15,343 bases of DNA from NCBI GenBank assembly GCA_031411835.1, contig JANOBV010000231.1, positions 1-15,343 of the forward strand, read 5' to 3'. The DNA is from Bacteroidota bacterium. GTDB taxonomy: Bacteria > Bacteroidota > Bacteroidia > AKYH767-A > 2013-40CM-41-45. Under the pieces are notes generated by a model. That model had not been told where the DNA came from and searched no databases. It saw nothing but the letters and a program-made list of their open reading frames with translations. This document shows positions 1 to 8,180 of this stretch, piece after piece. Both the position numbers and the translations under genes were made by a program. Within the stretch, counting starts at the first letter, position 1, and every line of letters starts with the position of its first letter.

Positions 1-155
1 CATTTCATTTCATTTCATTTCATTTCATTTCATTTCATTTCATTTCATTTCATTTCATTTCATTTCATTTCATTTCATTTCATTTCATTTCATTTCATTT
101 CATTTCATTTCATTTCATTTCATTTCATTTCATTCCACTTCACTTCACTTCATTT
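1..155. repeat. Pentanucleotide microsatellite: perfect (CATTT)26 at 1-130, then about 5 degenerate units (CATTC, CACTT x3, CATTT) to ~155. It is truncated by the window edge, so its true length is unknown.
   Basis: Direct reading: catttcattt... runs uninterrupted for 130 nt. The minus-strand unit is AAATG. The degenerate units at 136-151 encode the last codons (E-V-K) and the TGA stop (140-142) of the flotillin-like gene. Confidence 0.95.
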
Positions 156-2053
156 TTATTGTCGTCCTTATTTTTCGGTTCCATCATTTCCATCAACTTC
201 AATCCAAGCAAACCATCCATCGCACTTCCGTTCCCATTTCCACCAATGAGTACATCTGGAATTAATTTCACTTTTCCTTTTGCCAATTCCTCAGTGATCT
301 TATATTTCGTAAAATTTTCACCGCCGATGGCTTTCACTGCTAATTCATAAGATTCAGCGGTCGATTTACCAATTGCTAAGATCTTTCCGGCTTCAGCATT
401 TCCTGTTAAGGAGATCTGTTCTGCTTGTGCTGATGCTTTCATTTTAATTGCTTCTGAATCTGCTTGCGCTCTTGCTTTTGTAGATTCTGCTTCTGCATAA
501 GCGCGAAGTTTAGTTGCTTCGGCCTCTGCACCGACAGCCAATTTCACGCCTGTTGCATCACCTTCTGCTTTCTTAACTGTTGCATTTGCTGTTCGCTCTG
601 CAATCTCAACACTCTGTTGCGCTTTTACAATATCTTTCTGCATATCAGCAATGGCAGTTTCTTTTTCCATTCCCTGACGTGTTTCTTGAGCACGCTTCTG
701 TGTATCGTATGTAACTTTTTGTTCTTCTGCAATTTTTCTATCTGTCAATGTTTTCATCAACGATTCGGGTGGAACGATATCCCCAATCAATGTATCAACT
801 GCATTGACATTATATTCGTCTAAGACTTTTTTAATGTGAGCCTTCGCAGATTCCTGACGTTCTTTACGAGTAGATAAGAAAGCAATCACATCGCTGTCTT
901 GTGCTGAGTTACGGAAGTAGTTTCCAATAGTCGGTTCCAAAACTTGTGAAACTAAATTCACCATGTTCCCAAAACGTGCAATAACTTTTGGTGCTTCTGT
1001 TGTAGGAACGTGAATGATTTGTGCTACATCCAAGTTAAATGGAAATCCATCTTTTGAACGAACTGTAATCGTAGAGAGATTCTTATCTAAGTTATGCGCT
1101 TCACTTCTCGCCGATGCCCAATTCAAAACTAAATTTGTTGTTGGTACCAATTCAACTTTCATAATGTATTTGTTTACCGGATATTTTCCCGGACCTAGCG
1201 GTTCTAACCAAACACCTTTGAAACCTTTTTCTACAATGTTGCCATGTTTAAAATCTGTACCGGTCAGATCATGGCCTTCGCCACCGATGTATGAAATAAC
1301 AACACCAACAAATCCAATTGGGATTTCTGTCATTGGTGTTTCTTCAATTTGAATTGCCCATGGATTTAAGTTGTATGAGCCGGCTAATATCACTTGCGGT
1401 TGTAATCCACGATTACCACCTGCTTTAAGAAACAAATCAAAGTCTTGAAAATTATTGTGACCTTCAATTGGTTTACCTGCTATTTGTCCTGACTCAATTG
1501 GCATTCCATCAAGCGTAGTAATAATTCCAACCATGCTCTCTTGAATCCGAACCATATCAGTCGTAGAAATTTGGAACAGCATTGTATTGATCCTGTATGA
1601 ACCGGCTGTGATGTAAGTCGTCTGTCGACCTCTTTGTCCACCATTCGCTAAAAATTTAATTGCATCTTGGAAATTATCGCAGTCAACATATTTTGCAAGG
1701 ATATTTCCTGTTGGAATTTCAGAACCATCTTTTGAAAGAACTAAACCGATTTTACCTTCAGGGATAACAGTGAATAATTCCATCGTAATTTCATACTGCC
1801 AAAACCATTTTCCGAAATACAAACCGGGTGCTAATGTCTTTGCTTGGAATCCTGCTTCACCTAGCGATGCAATGATGCGCCCATCAGGCAACTCTTTATT
1901 AGCTCCGAATAAAACGAATTTTTTTGTTACCAGTCCAATTCTATCTTCAGGAACGATGACCATTCCGAAAAGAAAACGGAGAATGTATTTATAAAGAACA
2001 ATGCAAAGAATTATTACCAGTACCCACCAGTAATTTAAAAATAAATTTTCCAT
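140..2053 (-). CDS. Flotillin-like SPFH/band-7 membrane protein (YqiK/FloT family)
   Basis: 637 aa with an ATG start at 2053-2051. There is an N-terminal transmembrane helix (YWWVLVIILCIVLY), then an SPFH/PHB-type domain, then a long Ala/Glu/Lys-rich coiled coil (AEAEATKLRAYAEAESTKARAQADSEAIKMKASAQAEQ) typical of bacterial flotillins. The C-terminal tail is charged and Lys/Asn-rich. Confidence 0.85.
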   Translation of the reverse strand: MENLFLNYWWVLVIILCIVLYKYILRFLFGMVIVPEDRIGLVTKKFVLFGANKELPDGRIIASLGEAGFQAKTLAPGLYFGKWFWQYEITMELFTVIPEGKIGLVLSKDGSEIPTGNILAKYVDCDNFQDAIKFLANGGQRGRQTTYITAGSYRINTMLFQISTTDMVRIQESMVGIITTLDGMPIESGQIAGKPIEGHNNFQDFDLFLKAGGNRGLQPQVILAGSYNLNPWAIQIEETPMTEIPIGFVGVVISYIGGEGHDLTGTDFKHGNIVEKGFKGVWLEPLGPGKYPVNKYIMKVELVPTTNLVLNWASARSEAHNLDKNLSTITVRSKDGFPFNLDVAQIIHVPTTEAPKVIARFGNMVNLVSQVLEPTIGNYFRNSAQDSDVIAFLSTRKERQESAKAHIKKVLDEYNVNAVDTLIGDIVPPESLMKTLTDRKIAEEQKVTYDTQKRAQETRQGMEKETAIADMQKDIVKAQQSVEIAERTANATVKKAEGDATGVKLAVGAEAEATKLRAYAEAESTKARAQADSEAIKMKASAQAEQISLTGNAEAGKILAIGKSTAESYELAVKAIGGENFTKYKITEELAKGKVKLIPDVLIGGNGNGSAMDGLLGLKLMEMMEPKNKDDNKNEVK

Positions 2054-2100
2054 TTTCGGTTAGATTTTATTAGCTGAAATTGCCTTTAGTTTTAGCGCTT

Positions 2101-2108
2101 CAAAGCTA
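2101..2108 (-). promoter_or_regulatory. Bacteroidota-type -7 promoter motif TAnnTTTG (TAGCTTTG on the minus strand), ~47 nt upstream of the flotillin start
   Basis: Plus strand reads caaagcta. The Bacteroidetes sigmaA consensus is -33 TTTG / -7 TAnnTTTG (established). Position alone supports this; it is untested. Confidence 0.3.
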
Positions 2109-2157
2109 ATAATATTTCCGAATGTTACTTTAAATCCAATTCAAAAATCCTAGCTTC

Positions 2158-2600
2158 TTAATAGGGGTTATGCCTGTAAGCAGGAATTTCAATAAAACCA
2201 CTATCTACATAAAGTTTGATAGCTGATTTCATAAAATCGGCTGTGTCGAGTTTGACTTTTTCGTAGTGCAATCTCTTTGCAATTTCTATGCAACGAGTGA
2301 GAAGCAGTTTACCAATTCCGAAACCTCTACTTTCCGGCTTGACATACATACGTTTGAATTCGCATTCTGATTCGTTGAATCTTTTGATTCCTGCGACACC
2401 GACAGCTATATTATTTCGGAATACAATGCAGAGACCGCCGTTTGGATTGCCATATGTTTCAGAAATCGTATTTAATTCGTGATTGAAATTTTGAAAGGAT
2501 AGATCAATTCCTTGCTAAGTAACATATTCCAAAATTAAAATCTTAGCTGCTGAAAAATTAGCTGCAGTTTTACCTCTAAGAATTCAATTTTATTTTTCAT
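2158..2600 (-). pseudogene. GNAT-family N-acetyltransferase (YsnE-like), disrupted. The 63-aa ATG ORF (2158-2349) holds only acetyl-CoA motif A onward. The upstream in-frame GNAT-like sequence is cut by TAG at 2515-2517, and the likely N-terminus (ATG at 2600-2598, MKNKIEFLEVK...) is in another frame.
   Basis: Manual translation of the minus strand 2514->2350 gives QGIDLSFQNFNHELNTISETYGNPNGGLCIVFRNNIAVGVAGIKRFNESECEFKR, contiguous with MYVKPESRGFGIGKLLLTRCIEIAKRLHYEKVKLDT... This is the GNAT beta4-alpha3 motif A (R-x-x-G-x-G). No ATG/GTG/TTG occurs between the TAG and M at 2349. Frame 1 from 2600 reads MKNKIEFLEVKLQLIFQQLRF*. Confidence 0.5.
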
Positions 2601-2994
2601 TCTTTTTTCTAAGATATAGTATTGGTTTTCCCGGTGTAAAGAAAGGTGAAAAAGTTATATTAAGCGAATCGTCTGAAATTAATTCTAAATCACAACCCGG
2701 TGGCGGCCACATTGGGAAATAACCGGATGAGTAAATATGTCCGGTTGAATCTTTTGAAAAATAATATGGATTTCTATCTGCACCTTTTAAAGTAATTTGA
2801 TATCCTTCATCAACAAATTCTGCTCTTTGGTGTGTAGAATCTACCATGTACCAATAACCAAGAATTTTTTTTGATTCGAAATAGGAACGTTTAACCCGCT
2901 GGGAAATGCTATCATTTGCTACTTGCGAATTGGCATTGAAACAAAGCAGAGTGCAAGAAAACCAGATTGAAATGATTGGAAATTTTTGAATCAT
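2590..2994 (-). CDS. Small secreted hypothetical protein (signal peptide; possibly a lipocalin-like beta-barrel)
   Basis: 134 aa with ATG at 2994-2992. The N-terminus MIQKFPIISIWFSCTLLCFNANSQ is a classic signal peptide. The mature part is Tyr/Trp/Gly-rich (GYWYMVDST...GYFPMWPPPGCDLEL) with no recognisable catalytic motif. Confidence 0.5.
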   Translation of the reverse strand: MIQKFPIISIWFSCTLLCFNANSQVANDSISQRVKRSYFESKKILGYWYMVDSTHQRAEFVDEGYQITLKGADRNPYYFSKDSTGHIYSSGYFPMWPPPGCDLELISDDSLNITFSPFFTPGKPILYLRKKNEK

Positions 2995-3019
2995 GGAACC
3001 AACTTGTCGACTATTATGC

Positions 3020-3027
3020 CAAAGATA
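3020..3027 (-). promoter_or_regulatory. Bacteroidota-type -7 promoter motif TATCTTTG, ~25 nt upstream of the 2994 start
   Basis: Plus strand reads caaagata. It matches TAnnTTTG, with TTTA ~18-20 nt further upstream (the -33 consensus is TTTG). Confidence 0.35.
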
Positions 3028-3055
3028 ATTAAATTGCCTATGGTAAAGCAGGAAT

Positions 3056-3736
3056 TTAGTTTGATTTTACTGTCATTAAATAATTGCTTTCAAAAATTGC
3101 AATCGGAGAAATGACTGTTTCTTGAGTAGGAATTTTATCTCCATAACGTTCCTTCATAATTTTCTTGACGGATTTATTCGTCAGATCAAAATCGCTAAGC
3201 TTTTGTAGTTTGCCTATTTCTATTCCTGTTGCACGTTGATAAATTTTCCAAATTAGTTCAGAGCAATATATTTTGTCGTCGGACCATTCAAAAGTAAGAT
3301 CGTAATTTTTGCCTTTCAATTGTTCGCCGACATCTTTCATTTTTTGAAGTGAAGCTTCGTTTAATATTTGATCCGCATTTTTTAATCGCTTAATCACATA
3401 TTTCCCTTCTTGTCCACGAGCAATCCACTCATCAAGTGGTGTTCGCTTAACAGGCTGAACCGCTTCGAAAACATAGTAATCATTTCCATCTTTATAGATC
3501 AATCCGCAATGAGAGTATTTAGATCTAGTTGCAAGTTGAATAGCTTTGCTTTGTGATGAAAGAGAAGTTTGGAAGATCAGGTCTCCGTTTTTTAATTCGT
3601 TATTTTCTGTAAGTTGTTTTACTTCTGATTTAGCTGATTCAAGAAATTGATTTCTAGTGTGAGAATTTCGTTTTATGTAAATCCAACCGGTAATTACAAT
3701 AACTAAAAGTCCTAATATGGCTATCTTTTTTTTCAT
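3056..3736 (-). CDS. YiiX/YaeF-family permuted papain-like amidase (NlpC/P60 superfamily, DUF830/peptidase C92-like), membrane-anchored or secreted
   Basis: 226 aa. There is an N-terminal hydrophobic anchor (MKKKIAILGLLVIVITGWIY). Family-typical blocks are GDLIFQTS..SSQSKAIQLATRSKYSHCGLIY, VFEAV..V.RTPLDEWIARG, and a catalytic-Cys block KIYCSELIWKIY. The order matches the circularly permuted YiiX/YaeF family. Confidence 0.8.
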   Translation of the reverse strand: MKKKIAILGLLVIVITGWIYIKRNSHTRNQFLESAKSEVKQLTENNELKNGDLIFQTSLSSQSKAIQLATRSKYSHCGLIYKDGNDYYVFEAVQPVKRTPLDEWIARGQEGKYVIKRLKNADQILNEASLQKMKDVGEQLKGKNYDLTFEWSDDKIYCSELIWKIYQRATGIEIGKLQKLSDFDLTNKSVKKIMKERYGDKIPTQETVISPIAIFESNYLMTVKSN

Positions 3737-3746
3737 TTAAATAATT

Positions 3747-4169
3747 TCACTTTCCGGGATACAACTTCTTCATATGTTTCAAATGATTCACAATCATTTT
3801 CTCTAGAATCACAATGTTTATATCCTCAAGCTTCTTGACATAAACACAGCCTTTCGTTGTTTTATGTTTTCCAAATTTTTCAAGCAACTCTTCTCGTTTA
3901 TCAAAACTGGCACAGAAATAAAATGTAAGAGCAGTTGAACGTGGAGAGAAGGCTGCTAATGGAGCATCACCTTCATGCCCACTTGGATATTTATAATGGT
4001 AGCTTCCAAAACCAATAATGCTGGGGCCCCACATTTTTGGCTCAAGTCCGGTTTGTTTTTTGAAAATCTTTACGAGTTCTAATCCGTCTTTGCGTTTTTT
4101 TTCATCTTCTATGCCATTGATGAAATCTTTTACGCTGACTTTTGTTTCTTCGGTTTTATTTTTTGCCAT
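3747..4169 (-). CDS. DUF1801 (YdhG-like) domain protein
   Basis: 140 aa. MAKNKTEETKVSVKDFINGIED...MWGPSIIGFGSYHYKYPSGHEGD...FSPRSTALTFYF follows the conserved DUF1801 pattern (MWGPSI[IV]GFGSYHYKY.SG.EGD). It sits 10 bp upstream of the YiiX gene start, so the two are probably co-transcribed. Confidence 0.8.
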   Translation of the reverse strand: MAKNKTEETKVSVKDFINGIEDEKKRKDGLELVKIFKKQTGLEPKMWGPSIIGFGSYHYKYPSGHEGDAPLAAFSPRSTALTFYFCASFDKREELLEKFGKHKTTKGCVYVKKLEDINIVILEKMIVNHLKHMKKLYPGK

Positions 4170-4253
4170 GATATTTTATTTAGCAACAAAATTTAGGCAA
4201 TTAAGATAAAGAATAATTTGAAGAATCGAATATTGTTTTTTGAATTAATTAGC

Positions 4254-7200
4254 TTAATTCTTCTTCTCTGAAAATTTAATGATCTTATTATACAATTCAT
4301 TTTCGTCAATTGGTTTGGAAATGTAATCGTTCATTCCAATAGCAATACATTTTTCGACATCCATAGAGGTTACATCTGCCGTAAGTGCAATAATTGGAAC
4401 TGTAGATTTCATCACTTTTCGAATATGTTCGGTCGCCTGAAAGCCATTCATCTCCGGCATTTGTAGATCCATTAATACAATATCATATTCTTTTGAATGC
4501 ATCATTTCAATAGCAAGTTTTCCATTGCCTGCAATATCAAAGTCGAAACCATAGTCCGATAAAATTATTTTTATAAGAAGTTGATTCAATGCAATGTCTT
4601 CTGCTACCAGAACTTTTACATCTTTTAATTTTGATTCGTGAATTTCACCATCTAAAATAATTTTCTTCTCATTTCCATTTTCACGTAAGAGCATCGTTTT
4701 GCCTTTCTTAAAGCGGAAGACAAAGCTAAAAGTAGAACCATAATCTCTTTTACTTTTTACTTCTATAGTTCCACCCTGAAGTTCAACGAGCTTTTTTACA
4801 ATTGAAAGACCCAGGCCGGTCCCTCCATAAAGTCTCGAAGTTTCATATGCTTCTTGTCCGAAGTCCTCAAAAATTCGCCCGAGTTGATTTTTGTGAATAC
4901 CAATTCCGGTATCAGCAATGCTAAATTCAATTGCGATCTTATCTTCGTCTTCATTAAGCGACTTTATTTTAATTGTAATCGATCCCGAAGACGTAAACTT
5001 AACGGCGTTACTTACCAAATTTAGAATGATCTGACGTAGGCGCATCGGATCCCCGATAACTATTGCCGGAATTGAAGCATCATAATCTTTTATTAGTTTC
5101 AGATTCTTTTCTAGAATTTTAGTCTCAAAAAGTTGAAGCGTGCCGGCGATAGAATCCGATAGGTTGAAAGGGATTTGTTCAAAGGTCATTTTCCCGGAAT
5201 TCACTTTGGCTAAGTCAAGGATATCGTTTATTAGAATGATCAAAGCCTCACCGGATTCTTTAACAGCACTTACATATTCTTTTTGTGGAGAGTTTAATTC
5301 TGTTTTAAGTAGGATATTTGTGAAACCAATTATTGAATTCATCGGAGTACGAATTTCATGACTCATATTGGAGAGAAACTGCTGCTTAGATATCACTGCG
5401 TCTTCAGCAATCTTAGTTTTTACGTCTGCATTCTTTTTTGCCTCTATCAAATGTACATTACTTTCTTCAATTTTCTTATTTGCTTTCTTCTCAATTTCCA
5501 ATTGTAACTCTAGGGCTTTATTCTCTTTTACCTGGAGTTCTTTAGCAAGAAGCTTTATTTTTGTAATATCTGAAATAGTAAGAACAATCAGTTCTTCTCT
5601 ACTGCTTTCGTGAACTATTTTATGAGCATTTAACAACATTGTTTTTTGGCCGATATCCGGAAAGGTGTGCTCAACTTCAAAATCTTGAAATTGCTTGTTT
5701 TTAATAAGAATACTCTCTAGAAGATCGCGGAGCTTTGGAATATTCCATTGATTGTTGCCAAGCTTAAAAAGTGATATTCCTACGCTTTCATCTTGCGTAA
5801 CATGAAACATTTTACAAAAGGATTGATTTGCTGATTTGATGCAAATGTCTTTGTCCAAAATTAACATTGGTTCGTGAATTGTAGACAATATCGATTCATA
5901 ATAATTATAGATTTCTTCTACTTGTTGAATTCGTGCTTGCAATTCCTGATTTGTAGTGATCAGCTCCTCATTCGTTGATTCTATTTCTTCTTTTGATGTT
6001 TCAAGTTCTTCATTTAAGCTTTGTAATTCTTCATTACTCGAAACTATTTCTTCATTGGCACTTTGTAATTCTTCATTAGCAGCTTCTTGATCTTGTGTGA
6101 TGGATGCCATATCATAACGGGAAGCTGATATCTCTTCTTCTAGTTTTTTTATTCTGCGGTCTTTTGAAATGGAATTATTTTTTACGCCTTTTGTTGTTTG
6201 TTCAAATATTTCAGGTTGTTCAAGACCTGAAAATACAATCACTAATAAGTCTTCTTCGCCATCGATCTTTATTGGAGTCACATCTAATGAAATTATTCTA
6301 ATTGCATTTCCGGGCTTGTCACGATTCATTTCTATACCGGTTTTTCGTACCGTTTGTTTTGTTTTTATTGCATGATGAATTGCATTTCGTAACTCAAATG
6401 TAATTTCCATATGAGCCATTTTTAAAATATTCAAACTCGCTTTACCTGCTGTATTGAGAAGATATGGCGAAGTATTGCCTCTGAATTGGAGAATCTCCAG
6501 ATCATGGTTTATCACTACGCTGGCCGGAGCATATTCTGCAAGTAAAAATGAATCAAAGTTTGTGCTTAGACTACTTGTAACTATGGATGGAGCTTTACTT
6601 GGTTGAATGATCTCTACATTATTTCCTTTTTGCAAATTAGTTTGCAAAACTCTAGGCGAAATATCTGAAATACTTAGGGCCCTTGTGCTTTTTTTACGAG
6701 TATATATTTTATACTTTTTATTTATCTGCGTACTGAAAAGTTGTATTGAAGCGCCTACAGTTTCAGATTTTCCAAGCATTAAGCACCCGTTTTCATTTAG
6801 AGCGTAATTGAAAGTAGAAATAATTTTTTTCTGCGCAAGTGTATCGAGGTAGATAAGCAGATTTCGGCAACTGATAAAATCCATTCTTGAAAATGGTGGA
6901 TCTGTTAGAATATTATGAATTGCAAAGATACAAACATCTCGAAGTGATTTTGAGATACGATATTTATCTTTTGTCTTTGTAAAAAATCGCTGAAGTCTTT
7001 TGGAAGAAACATTTTTTAATTGATCTTTCGAATATTCTCCATTGCGTGCATTAGTGATCGCTTCAGTACTGAGATCAGACGCAAAGATCTGGAAAGGAAC
7101 GTTGCTGTATTTGCTGTCTTGAACTTCAAGAAGTAGCATTGCAATAGAATAAACTTCTTCACCGGTCGCACAAGCAGGAACCCAAATTCGCAAAGTATCG

Positions 7201-8180
7201 CCTTGTTTTTTATTTTTAAGAAGTTGTGGTAAAACCGATTTTTTTAAGAATAAAAATGAATCCGGATCTCTGAAAAATTCAGTTACATTTATTAGTAGAT
7301 CATCATATAGCGAGTTTACTTCATGGTTATCTTTTTCGCATAGTTGTGTGTATTCTTTAAGGACACTCATTTTATGAATCAACATCCTGCGTAAGATGCG
7401 TCTTTTAATAGTGTTTTTTTTATAATGACTGAAGTCGACACTTTTTTTCTTGTGTAAAAGTTGGATCAATTTATATAGATCGACATCATTATCATCAATT
7501 GAATCTTCAGGAGCTGCTTTTATCTCTTTGCTTTTTATTAGAGGATGTTTACTGATCCAATTTATTTTTTTTCCTATTTCACTTGGCGAAAGAACAAAAT
7601 CAGCTACGCCTGCTGCAATTGCAGATTGAGGCATGCTCTTGAATTTTGAAGTTTCGTTTTGCGCAAAAGTGATACCGCCAACAAGTTTTATATCTTTTAA
7701 TCCTTCAGTTCCGTCAGTACCACTTCCTGAAAGAACTACGCCAATTACATTTTCTTTGTGAGTTTGCGCTAGGGAAGTAAAAAGAACATCGATTGATAGA
7801 GTGAATCCTTTCGCTCGAGGAAGTAATGCTATATGCCCATCTGTCACTTCAATGCCTTTGTTATATGGCATTACATAAACATTGTTGGGCTCCATTTTAT
7901 CCATATCTTCCACATCCTGAACTTTCATAGATGTTACTTTTGATAAAATGGAAGTTAGGATGCTTTTATGATCAGGACTTAAATGCTGGACATAAATAAA
8001 TGCCATGCCTGTAGTAGGTGACAAACTTTTCAGAAATTGAGTAACGGCTTCAAGTCCACCGGCAGATGCGCCAATAGCAACAACAGTGAATGAATTCCAA
8101 TCTGTTTTGATTTTAGAAAGTGGTGCTTTCTTCTTTAAAACAGGTGCTTTCTTTTTTATTTGTGTTGGTTTCTTTTTCAT
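4254..8180 (-). CDS. Hybrid sensor histidine kinase/response regulator with fused CheB methylesterase and CheR methyltransferase domains (CheB-CheR-coiled coil-PAS-HisKA-HATPase_c-REC), soluble
   Basis: 1308 aa with ATG at 8180-8178 and no transmembrane segment. The CheB domain shows VVAIGASAGGLEA...HIALLPRAKG. The CheR domain shows LLINVTEFFRDP...LRIWVPACATGEEVYSIAMLLLE. The PAS region follows. The H-box is NMSHEIRTPMNSIIGF, with the His codon at plus 5358-5360. The G-box is GGTGLGLSIVKKLVELQGG. The C-terminal receiver is KVLVAEDIALNQ...DIVLMDLQMPEMNG. The N-terminal tail is Lys-rich (KKKPTQIKKKAPVLKKKAPLSK). Confidence 0.9.
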   Translation of the reverse strand: MKKKPTQIKKKAPVLKKKAPLSKIKTDWNSFTVVAIGASAGGLEAVTQFLKSLSPTTGMAFIYVQHLSPDHKSILTSILSKVTSMKVQDVEDMDKMEPNNVYVMPYNKGIEVTDGHIALLPRAKGFTLSIDVLFTSLAQTHKENVIGVVLSGSGTDGTEGLKDIKLVGGITFAQNETSKFKSMPQSAIAAGVADFVLSPSEIGKKINWISKHPLIKSKEIKAAPEDSIDDNDVDLYKLIQLLHKKKSVDFSHYKKNTIKRRILRRMLIHKMSVLKEYTQLCEKDNHEVNSLYDDLLINVTEFFRDPDSFLFLKKSVLPQLLKNKKQGDTLRIWVPACATGEEVYSIAMLLLEVQDSKYSNVPFQIFASDLSTEAITNARNGEYSKDQLKNVSSKRLQRFFTKTKDKYRISKSLRDVCIFAIHNILTDPPFSRMDFISCRNLLIYLDTLAQKKIISTFNYALNENGCLMLGKSETVGASIQLFSTQINKKYKIYTRKKSTRALSISDISPRVLQTNLQKGNNVEIIQPSKAPSIVTSSLSTNFDSFLLAEYAPASVVINHDLEILQFRGNTSPYLLNTAGKASLNILKMAHMEITFELRNAIHHAIKTKQTVRKTGIEMNRDKPGNAIRIISLDVTPIKIDGEEDLLVIVFSGLEQPEIFEQTTKGVKNNSISKDRRIKKLEEEISASRYDMASITQDQEAANEELQSANEEIVSSNEELQSLNEELETSKEEIESTNEELITTNQELQARIQQVEEIYNYYESILSTIHEPMLILDKDICIKSANQSFCKMFHVTQDESVGISLFKLGNNQWNIPKLRDLLESILIKNKQFQDFEVEHTFPDIGQKTMLLNAHKIVHESSREELIVLTISDITKIKLLAKELQVKENKALELQLEIEKKANKKIEESNVHLIEAKKNADVKTKIAEDAVISKQQFLSNMSHEIRTPMNSIIGFTNILLKTELNSPQKEYVSAVKESGEALIILINDILDLAKVNSGKMTFEQIPFNLSDSIAGTLQLFETKILEKNLKLIKDYDASIPAIVIGDPMRLRQIILNLVSNAVKFTSSGSITIKIKSLNEDEDKIAIEFSIADTGIGIHKNQLGRIFEDFGQEAYETSRLYGGTGLGLSIVKKLVELQGGTIEVKSKRDYGSTFSFVFRFKKGKTMLLRENGNEKKIILDGEIHESKLKDVKVLVAEDIALNQLLIKIILSDYGFDFDIAGNGKLAIEMMHSKEYDIVLMDLQMPEMNGFQATEHIRKVMKSTVPIIALTADVTSMDVEKCIAIGMNDYISKPIDENELYNKIIKFSEKKN
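5935..6095 (-). repeat. Intragenic 21-bp imperfect tandem repeat (~7 copies, plus-strand unit a(a/t)ttcttcatt-N10) encoding seven heptads ANEELQS/ANEEIVS/SNEELQS/LNEELET/SKEEIES/TNEELIT/TNQELQA in the kinase linker
   Basis: Direct reading of 5960-6095: agttcttcatttaagctttgt / aattcttcattactcgaaact / atttcttcattggcactttgt / aattcttcattagcagcttcttg. Protein: QEAANEELQSANEEIVSSNEELQSLNEELETSKEEIESTNEELITTNQELQARIQQ. Confidence 0.85.

Follow-up and report, generated by a model that had tools for sequence, protein, structure and literature searches.

The window, the whole 15,343-bp contig analyzed here, begins inside a long pentanucleotide repeat that runs directly into the 3′ end of a flotillin-like gene on the minus strand, the only long open reading frame (ORF) near the tract. 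The features at this end of the window are as follows:

1..130, plus strand: perfect (CATTT)26, equal to (AAATG)26 on the minus strand; pure periodicity continues up to 134, and the start is cut by the contig edge
131..155: five decayed units, cattc cactt cactt cactt cattt, read on the minus strand as AAATG AAGTG AAGTG AAGTG GAATG
140..142, minus strand: TGA stop of the flotillin gene, provided by a decayed unit (AGTGA)
143..154, minus strand: last four flotillin codons, AAT GAA GTG AAG (N E V K), within decayed repeat units
140..2053, minus strand: SPFH/Band_7 (flotillin / YqiK-like) gene, 637 aa (Pfam Band_7/SPFH, E = 2.8e-24)

The tract fits the definition of a microsatellite, that is, perfect units of 1–9 nt arranged head to tail and far over chance. 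The 26 uninterrupted CATTT units reported when the DNA was first read without database searches (the sequence-only reading) are present at 1–130, and pure period-5 identity extends over 134 nt. TRF describes the array at 1–155 as 31.0 copies of period 5 with 97% matches (score 282). The unit 15-mer has 27 matches against 0.49 expected, a count reached in none of 200 dinucleotide-preserving shuffles (0/200). Every minus-strand frame of (AAATG)n meets a TGA within five codons and all three plus-strand frames of (CATTT)n are open (HFISF, ISFHF, and FHFIS), so that both earlier statements on reading frames hold on direct reading. Neither single strand of the tract is predicted to fold (MFE 0 kcal/mol for both), and on this ground we rejected hairpin-driven instability; the prediction is consistent with plain slippage instead.

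The flotillin-like gene ends within the decayed part of the array, with an overlap of 15–16 nt. Homologues of its product are named flotillin family or YqiK by some sources. The window protein ends in ...KNKDDNKNEVK*, whereas orthologues at 90–92% identity end in ...KKDDKK*, ...KNDKK*, or ...KNNE*, about four codons shorter and without a tract. The proposal that decayed repeat units supply the tail and stop of flotillin is thus borne out, for four codons and not the three first counted. The NEVK tail and the stop are the sole demonstrable effect of the tract on flotillin, and the consequence is minor: four residues are added to a C-terminus that is already variable, the tail after LKLMEMM(E/D)P differing throughout the family. 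The orthologues (L002–L007) have no tract and have other genes downstream, and no comparison of tract length is possible with them. In L006 and L007, the 92%-identical orthologue has AATGAATAGAAGTGG as its end at the corresponding place, similar to AATGAAGTGAAGTGAAGTGG in the window; given this likeness, AATGA/AAGTG may be native sequence at the flotillin end. We found no intrinsic terminator 3′ of flotillin. Neither the window flotillin nor P0001 had a record when looked up by exact product, and a look-up by the GNAT neighbour returned one extra contig only, 1.2 kb long and ending within flotillin.

That neighbour, a GNAT acetyltransferase ORF at 2158–2349 (minus strand), matches only the C-terminal half of its Pfam profile (65–116 of 116). 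Its frame is open to about 2540, the upstream part has no ATG, GTG, or TTG start, and the same 63-aa call is made in a second strain, L001 (below); the ORF may be a truncated gene or have an unusual start. Further along, 4254–8180 (minus strand) encodes a 1,308-aa hybrid sensor kinase fused to chemotaxis-adaptation domains; it comprises CheB methylesterase, CheR methyltransferase, PAS, HisKA, HATPase_c, and receiver domains.

AAATG tracts and their cassette in Saprospiraceae

Long AAATG tracts are rare. We scanned one genome per species (185,579 species, 596 Gb) for (AAATG)8 and found 30 loci with at least eight perfect units, the longest perfect run among them being 105 nt vs. at least 134 nt in the window, in agreement with the first impression that the tract is extreme for a bacterial genome. 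Nine of the 30 loci come from six Saprospiraceae MAGs, three of which have two loci each (counting tracts of at least eight units). The AtpD encoded at the locus shared by L001 and another sequence, L029, matches proteins named Saprospiraceae, and these homologue names, together with the link to L001, would place the window organism in or near Saprospiraceae (Bacteroidota). The labels BUSI22, GFS_, and GL44_UP suggest an origin in glacier-fed-stream biofilm metagenomes, which are short-read data assembled with MEGAHIT (PMC9021309). A text search of the literature for AAATG repeats in bacteria returned nothing relevant.

Tracts of the same unit take other forms elsewhere. In two MAGs named Bacteroidetes bacterium (L025, 932–1080, and L037, 220–452), AAATG blocks alternate with GAATG or interrupted units, and these compound arrays suggest unit mutation followed by re-expansion. 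CATTT tracts of one Metamycoplasmataceae MAG (L015, 2431–2488, and L032, 1561–1665) lie in open frames that extend 640–1,558 nt upstream and may be true coding repeats, the sole such cases among the 30 genome loci. IMG/VR contains 27 viral contigs (L052–L078) with at least eight AAATG units, several of which are giant-virus MAG contigs (GVMAG).

The Saprospiraceae tracts are embedded in a conserved cassette. Its order in the CATTT direction is a TAnnTTTG box, a leader, (CATTT)n, a spacer of about 25 nt, a TATTGA-N7-TCAATA palindrome, a 20-nt box (GCTCATGCA[G/A][A/C]CGAAGCGTA), and a gene that starts 130–190 nt past the tract. The palindrome and the 20-nt box adjoin the tract in 7/8 Saprospiraceae loci that are readable there (L019, the ninth, breaks off at the tract), and both are also found in six more loci (L044–L047, L049, and L050). 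None of the cassette elements was found within the window. The cassette loci, with the lipoprotein-type genes of five of them, are:

L011: cassette 6848–7275; lipoprotein-type gene 5895–6875, minus strand
L016: cassette 95–340; lipoprotein-type gene ~280–1522, plus strand
L024: cassette 5944–6420; lipoprotein-type gene 6355–7608, plus strand
L031: cassette 2852–3330; lipoprotein-type gene 1942–2917, minus strand
L036: cassette 4039–4294; lipoprotein-type gene 3040–4104, minus strand
L017: cassette 3500–3790
L029: cassette 1960–2250
L044: cassette 7690–8000

The side of the cassette ahead of the tract has a promoter-like appearance. TAnnTTTG is found exactly at −88 from the tract in three flank types (atpD type, L019, and L031), and by our own count on the alignment, L011 and L024 have CAnnTTTG at about −90. 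TAnnTTTG is the Bacteroidetes-type −7 consensus known from Bacteroides and Flavobacterium promoters. Judged by its match to this consensus, the −88 box would be a promoter-like element pointing into the tract. Nine loci with the atpD/relA-type flank share an identical 31-nt leader, AACAATCATTTTCAACTAAAACTAAAAACAC (100%); the flank around it in L044/L045 and L017 is only about 83% identical. Neighbours on this side are unrelated housekeeping genes, namely atpD, NUDIX plus uppS, an OmpA-family gene, gcvP, and a class-V aminotransferase.

The genes downstream of the cassette are of three kinds: lipoprotein-like genes (MKKL...C[KQ][KQ][DE]), a gene for a signal-peptide protein (L021, a locus without the box), and a 73–76-aa ORF at the head of a small operon. 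The C-[KQ]-[KQ]-[DE] sequence after the lipoprotein cysteine resembles what we take to be the Bacteroidetes surface-lipoprotein export signal. No Pfam domains were found in the cassette-linked proteins. Compared with the closest homologue of each, two of the five lipoprotein genes are broken up by +1 frameshifts (at GGGGACCCCC in L016 and at GACAACTATT in L031), and the five lipoprotein loci have a second, GC-rich hairpin (GGGCT...AGCCC) ahead of the ATG.

We considered an RNA structure for the post-tract element and dropped the claim, since RNAalifold gave an unvarying palindrome stem without covariation (0 compensatory pairs), and no Rfam match reached the gathering score in 74.6 kb of sequence. 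Such a stem is no evidence for or against an RNA structure, and it could equally well be a DNA site bound by protein. Signs of a phage or mobile element were likewise not seen: the cassette box has 0 matches in the viral contigs of IMG/VR, including the 27 that bear AAATG tracts, and the genes neighbouring tracts contain no mobile-element Pfam domains, with no adjacent transposase or integrase.

Two further observations concern sequence near these loci. L017 and L029, which come from independent MAGs and are 95.7% identical, have contig ends (4236 and 2692, respectively) at the same point within 3 nt, about 590 nt past the tract and just after the small gene, suggesting another repeat or assembly breakpoint at this place. 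Repeats of 32–36 nt that are about 94% identical and occur in both orientations across MAGs (L017, 1479–1558; L024, 687–718 and 1352–1387) may be REP-like intergenic elements.

Whole-unit length changes and exchange of flanks

Tract length differs among members of the family. In the orthologous small-gene module, the tract measures 19 nt in L046, 44 nt in L017, L049, and L050, 49 nt in L029, 54 nt in L044, and 79 nt in L045, a range of 3.8 to 15.8 units; at the atpD locus, lengths are 19, 44, and 49 nt. L044 and L045, which are k141 MEGAHIT contigs from different samples, match at 100% across the 300 nt that flank the tract on either side, and L045 has exactly five units (25 nt) more in its tract. 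With k longer than either tract, the length polymorphism is a clean one. Copy-number variation is thereby demonstrated for family members, and the hypermutability that the sequence-only reading ascribed to the tract is supported in kind; the window's own tract is cut in both assemblies that contain it.

Combinations of flanks also differ between loci. L046 agrees with L029 in its atpD-side flank (99.3%), but its downstream side is that of L044 (94%) and not of L029 (79%); we place the switch within roughly 160 nt of the tract and no closer. The L044/L045 module is located after relA/spoT, not beside atpD. L011 and L031 have the lipoprotein side in common and different housekeeping neighbours. 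These flank mosaics map to the cassette.

A second strain and the sequence past position 1

An independent ENA scaffold, L001 (BUSI22-1_SAMN19433720 scaffold_48361), represents a second strain, with 98.1% identity over 3,235 nt (60 mismatches and no gaps). The decayed units that form the flotillin-side boundary of the array are identical in it. The L001 assembly likewise fails in the tract, giving 7 units, 100 N, and 11 units. This break, and the fact that the window is an entire contig, bear out the view that the window starts inside the tract at an assembly break.

L001 is the only sequence that continues past the window tract, with ~500 nt of noncoding DNA followed by atpD on the flotillin strand; this far side also carries the promoter-leader flank of the cassette. 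On the atpD side, identity to L001 is 100% over 1,064 nt in L029, about 99% in L046, and about 92% in L017. Where L001 has flotillin, however, L029 has the small gene, which it joins to the atpD flank through its 49-nt tract, and L017 and L046 likewise join the small gene. What ties the window tract to the atpD flank is a single scaffold join over 100 N in L001 and, given the small-gene joins in the three other sequences, the window tract could be a separate locus. We nonetheless think it fairly probable that flotillin–atpD and small gene–atpD reflect a strain rearrangement at the tract rather than a wrong join in L001, because the atpD-side tract of L001 (at least 55 nt) differs from the 49-nt allele of L029 and because cassette mosaics exist elsewhere. 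Scans of metagenome contigs for the flotillin-side and atpD-side junctions gave 0 matches, and no spanning contig was recovered.

The tract lies outside the conserved region upstream of atpD. AtpD relatives at 97% and 93% identity (L038–L042) have no tract, and their homology to L001 begins 340 nt beyond it; tract and flank are thus accessory DNA, outside the conserved atpD promoter region. The gene has a conserved TAnnTTTG box of its own, about 55 nt from the ATG and about 455 nt from the tract, which the tract-less relatives keep. Regulation of atpD by the tract was ranked low, as the conserved promoter region of the 97% and 93% relatives does not include it. Upstream of atpD, the 97% AtpD relative L038 has a C-5 cytosine DNA methyltransferase-like ORF (1–846, motif QIGNAVPP); this position is a variable accessory-gene hotspot in the group.

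Origin and possible roles of the window tract

The tract is real and noncoding, it belongs to a lineage-specific family with whole-unit length changes, and the flotillin ORF ends in its decayed units. Taking the evidence together, we favor with moderate confidence the explanation that this genuine noncoding, slippage-prone (AAATG)n·(CATTT)n microsatellite is a copy of the Saprospiraceae family, orphaned or recombinant at flotillin. The gene side of the cassette copy would have been replaced by the convergent flotillin 3′ end, which in the window occupies the position of the relatives' downstream gene. Recombination or a deletion, with its end point either in the tract or in AATGA/AAGTG microhomology, probably brought the replacement about. 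The flotillin ORF would then enter the decayed units for four codons and stop, because TGA is present in every AAATG frame. Slippage would have expanded the tract past 134 nt, more than short-read assembly could bridge, so that the contig would end there. A regulatory role may be supposed in addition, with the tract possibly affecting transcripts through 5′-UTR tuning in intact cassettes and, at the window, through an antisense or read-through transcript.

The tract could instead be a solo microsatellite, born locally from an AATGA/AAGTG proto-repeat at the flotillin end and unrelated to the cassette, in which case the join in L001 would be a scaffolding error brought about by several AAATG tracts in one genome. 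Several observations fit such an origin: decayed AAGTG units occur at the flotillin junction only, cassette junctions being sharp; the 92%-identical orthologue has its similar ending at the homologous spot; the window lacks cassette elements; and L029, L017, and L046 join the atpD flank to the small gene, not to flotillin. Yet an independent birth would make it a coincidence that so rare a unit recurs in the same lineage (9/30 loci genome-wide), and the atpD-side tract of L001 is a different long allele from that of L029, which is consistent with a real join. On balance, a solo origin seems unlikely.

An improbable alternative is that the tract acts at the window as a functional length-dependent switch or rheostat, either on read-through from flotillin to the atpD operon or on an antisense RNA to the flotillin 3′ end made from the cassette promoter. 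The promoter-like −88 box directed into the tract and the lack of a detected intrinsic terminator after flotillin are in keeping with it, as are known 5′-UTR repeats that set expression level, such as the AGAT repeat of uspA2 in the account of PMC4679880. Against it, atpD has its own box, retained in relatives without the tract, and ATP synthase is an unlikely target of stochastic switching.

The sequence-only reading itself had proposed a plus-strand gene entering from beyond position 1, with the tract as a frame-shifting coding repeat of the opa type or as a promoter spacer. Although the three CATTT frames are all open, the far side in L001 has only the noncoding stretch and atpD on the opposite strand to such a gene, and no ORF of at least 25 aa runs into the tract from there. 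The plus-strand frames leaving the window tract stop 112–213 nt beyond it, in flotillin antisense, and open frames on the CATTT strand end within tens of nucleotides of the tract at all Saprospiraceae loci; neither in the window, nor in L001, nor at any Saprospiraceae locus does the repeat lie inside a long ORF. A spacer role fares no better: tract lengths from 19 to more than 134 nt exceed any spacer between −33 and −7 elements, the promoter-like box sits 88 nt upstream of the tract, and the gene in relatives begins 130–190 nt downstream. We therefore regard this model as highly improbable. It is very unlikely indeed that the tract is an artefact of assembly or chimerism, with low-complexity sequence added to the contig that the genome itself lacks. 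The tract does sit where the contig stops, and short-read assembly can extend repeats wrongly; however, the junction recurs in L001, which was assembled independently from a strain with 60 differences in 3,235 positions, and fully spanned AAATG tracts exist in MEGAHIT k141 contigs and in isolate genomes such as those of Shewanella, Nitrosospira, and Methanosarcina.

The favored explanation, a family copy orphaned or recombinant at flotillin, can be set beside known repeat systems. Contingency-locus simple sequence repeats (SSRs) in bacteria adapted to hosts, such as the Haemophilus influenzae tetranucleotides and the CTCTT of Neisseria opa, are likewise perfect short-unit tandem arrays that slip by whole units; AAATG copy number differs between near-identical sequences in the same way, and the relatives' tracts are linked to secreted-protein and lipoprotein genes. 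Unlike them, the AAATG tract is outside a coding region, is no promoter spacer, and occurs in free-living stream-biofilm Saprospiraceae; the window tract moreover abuts the 3′ end of a gene. The (TAAA)n tract of Neisseria meningitidis nadA lies upstream of the promoter and acts through regulator and IHF binding. It too is an AT-rich SSR outside the core promoter, with length modulating expression and not frame; for AAATG, no such proteins or sites were identified.

Among the known systems, the family cassette would seem to resemble most closely the 5′-UTR repeat of Moraxella catarrhalis uspA2, where (AGAT)n is present in 6–23 copies (Attia and Hansen 2006, as cited in PMC4679880). The cassette would have a 5′-UTR layout, with the box at −88, the gene start 130–190 nt after the tract, and a transcription start that is predicted from consensus. 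As far as that citing account describes uspA2, both have a tract that follows a promoter-like box or promoter and lies well ahead of the start codon, in copy numbers that vary by strain (3.8–15.8 or more in the AAATG family). They differ in that AAATG is a pentamer, that the cassette transcription start is deduced from a consensus, and that the window copy has no correctly oriented downstream gene. Another likeness is to the TAACTGA heptamer arrays, which are intergenic and restricted to certain lineages (Beggiatoaceae, Cyanobacteria, and some Bacteroidetes; MacGregor 2015, PMC4679880). The arrays are long in Bacteroidetes, contigs end in them, and their neighbours differ between close relatives, which led to a proposed role in rearrangement (PMC4679880). 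AAATG is similarly one oligomer that recurs as intergenic tandem arrays in few lineages, its nine loci in six Saprospiraceae MAGs all being noncoding. By contrast, the unit is different, it is embedded in a cassette with a palindrome and a 20-nt box, and start codons lie 130–190 nt from the tract and not the few nucleotides seen downstream of TAACTGA arrays.

A broader reading, which we offer tentatively as possible though rather doubtful, would make the family a portable 5′ regulatory cassette (promoter box, strictly conserved leader, hypermutable tract, and palindrome plus box) that controls accessory lipoprotein, secreted-protein, and small-protein genes in cold-stream Saprospiraceae. The tract would then be both a heritable rheostat of expression, through its length, and a recombination site, with long identical tracts serving as sites of ectopic recombination that reshuffle the pairing of genes and promoters, and the window would be one such recombinant, in which a cassette has been joined to the end of flotillin.

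These tracts have a practical consequence: they break short-read MAG assemblies and can mislead scaffolders, and gene order near them needs long reads. Long perfect SSRs have mostly been studied in host-adapted pathogens, and here an AAATG pentamer recurs in free-living cold-stream Bacteroidota, in a conserved cassette beside secreted-protein and lipoprotein genes, with whole-unit polymorphism and with gene neighbourhoods that change where it occurs. Should the cassette be regulatory, stochastic surface variation (e.g., against phages or grazers) would extend to environmental biofilm bacteria, and if the broader reading of a portable cassette is true, a free-living environmental bacterium would possess population heterogeneity like that generated by contingency loci.
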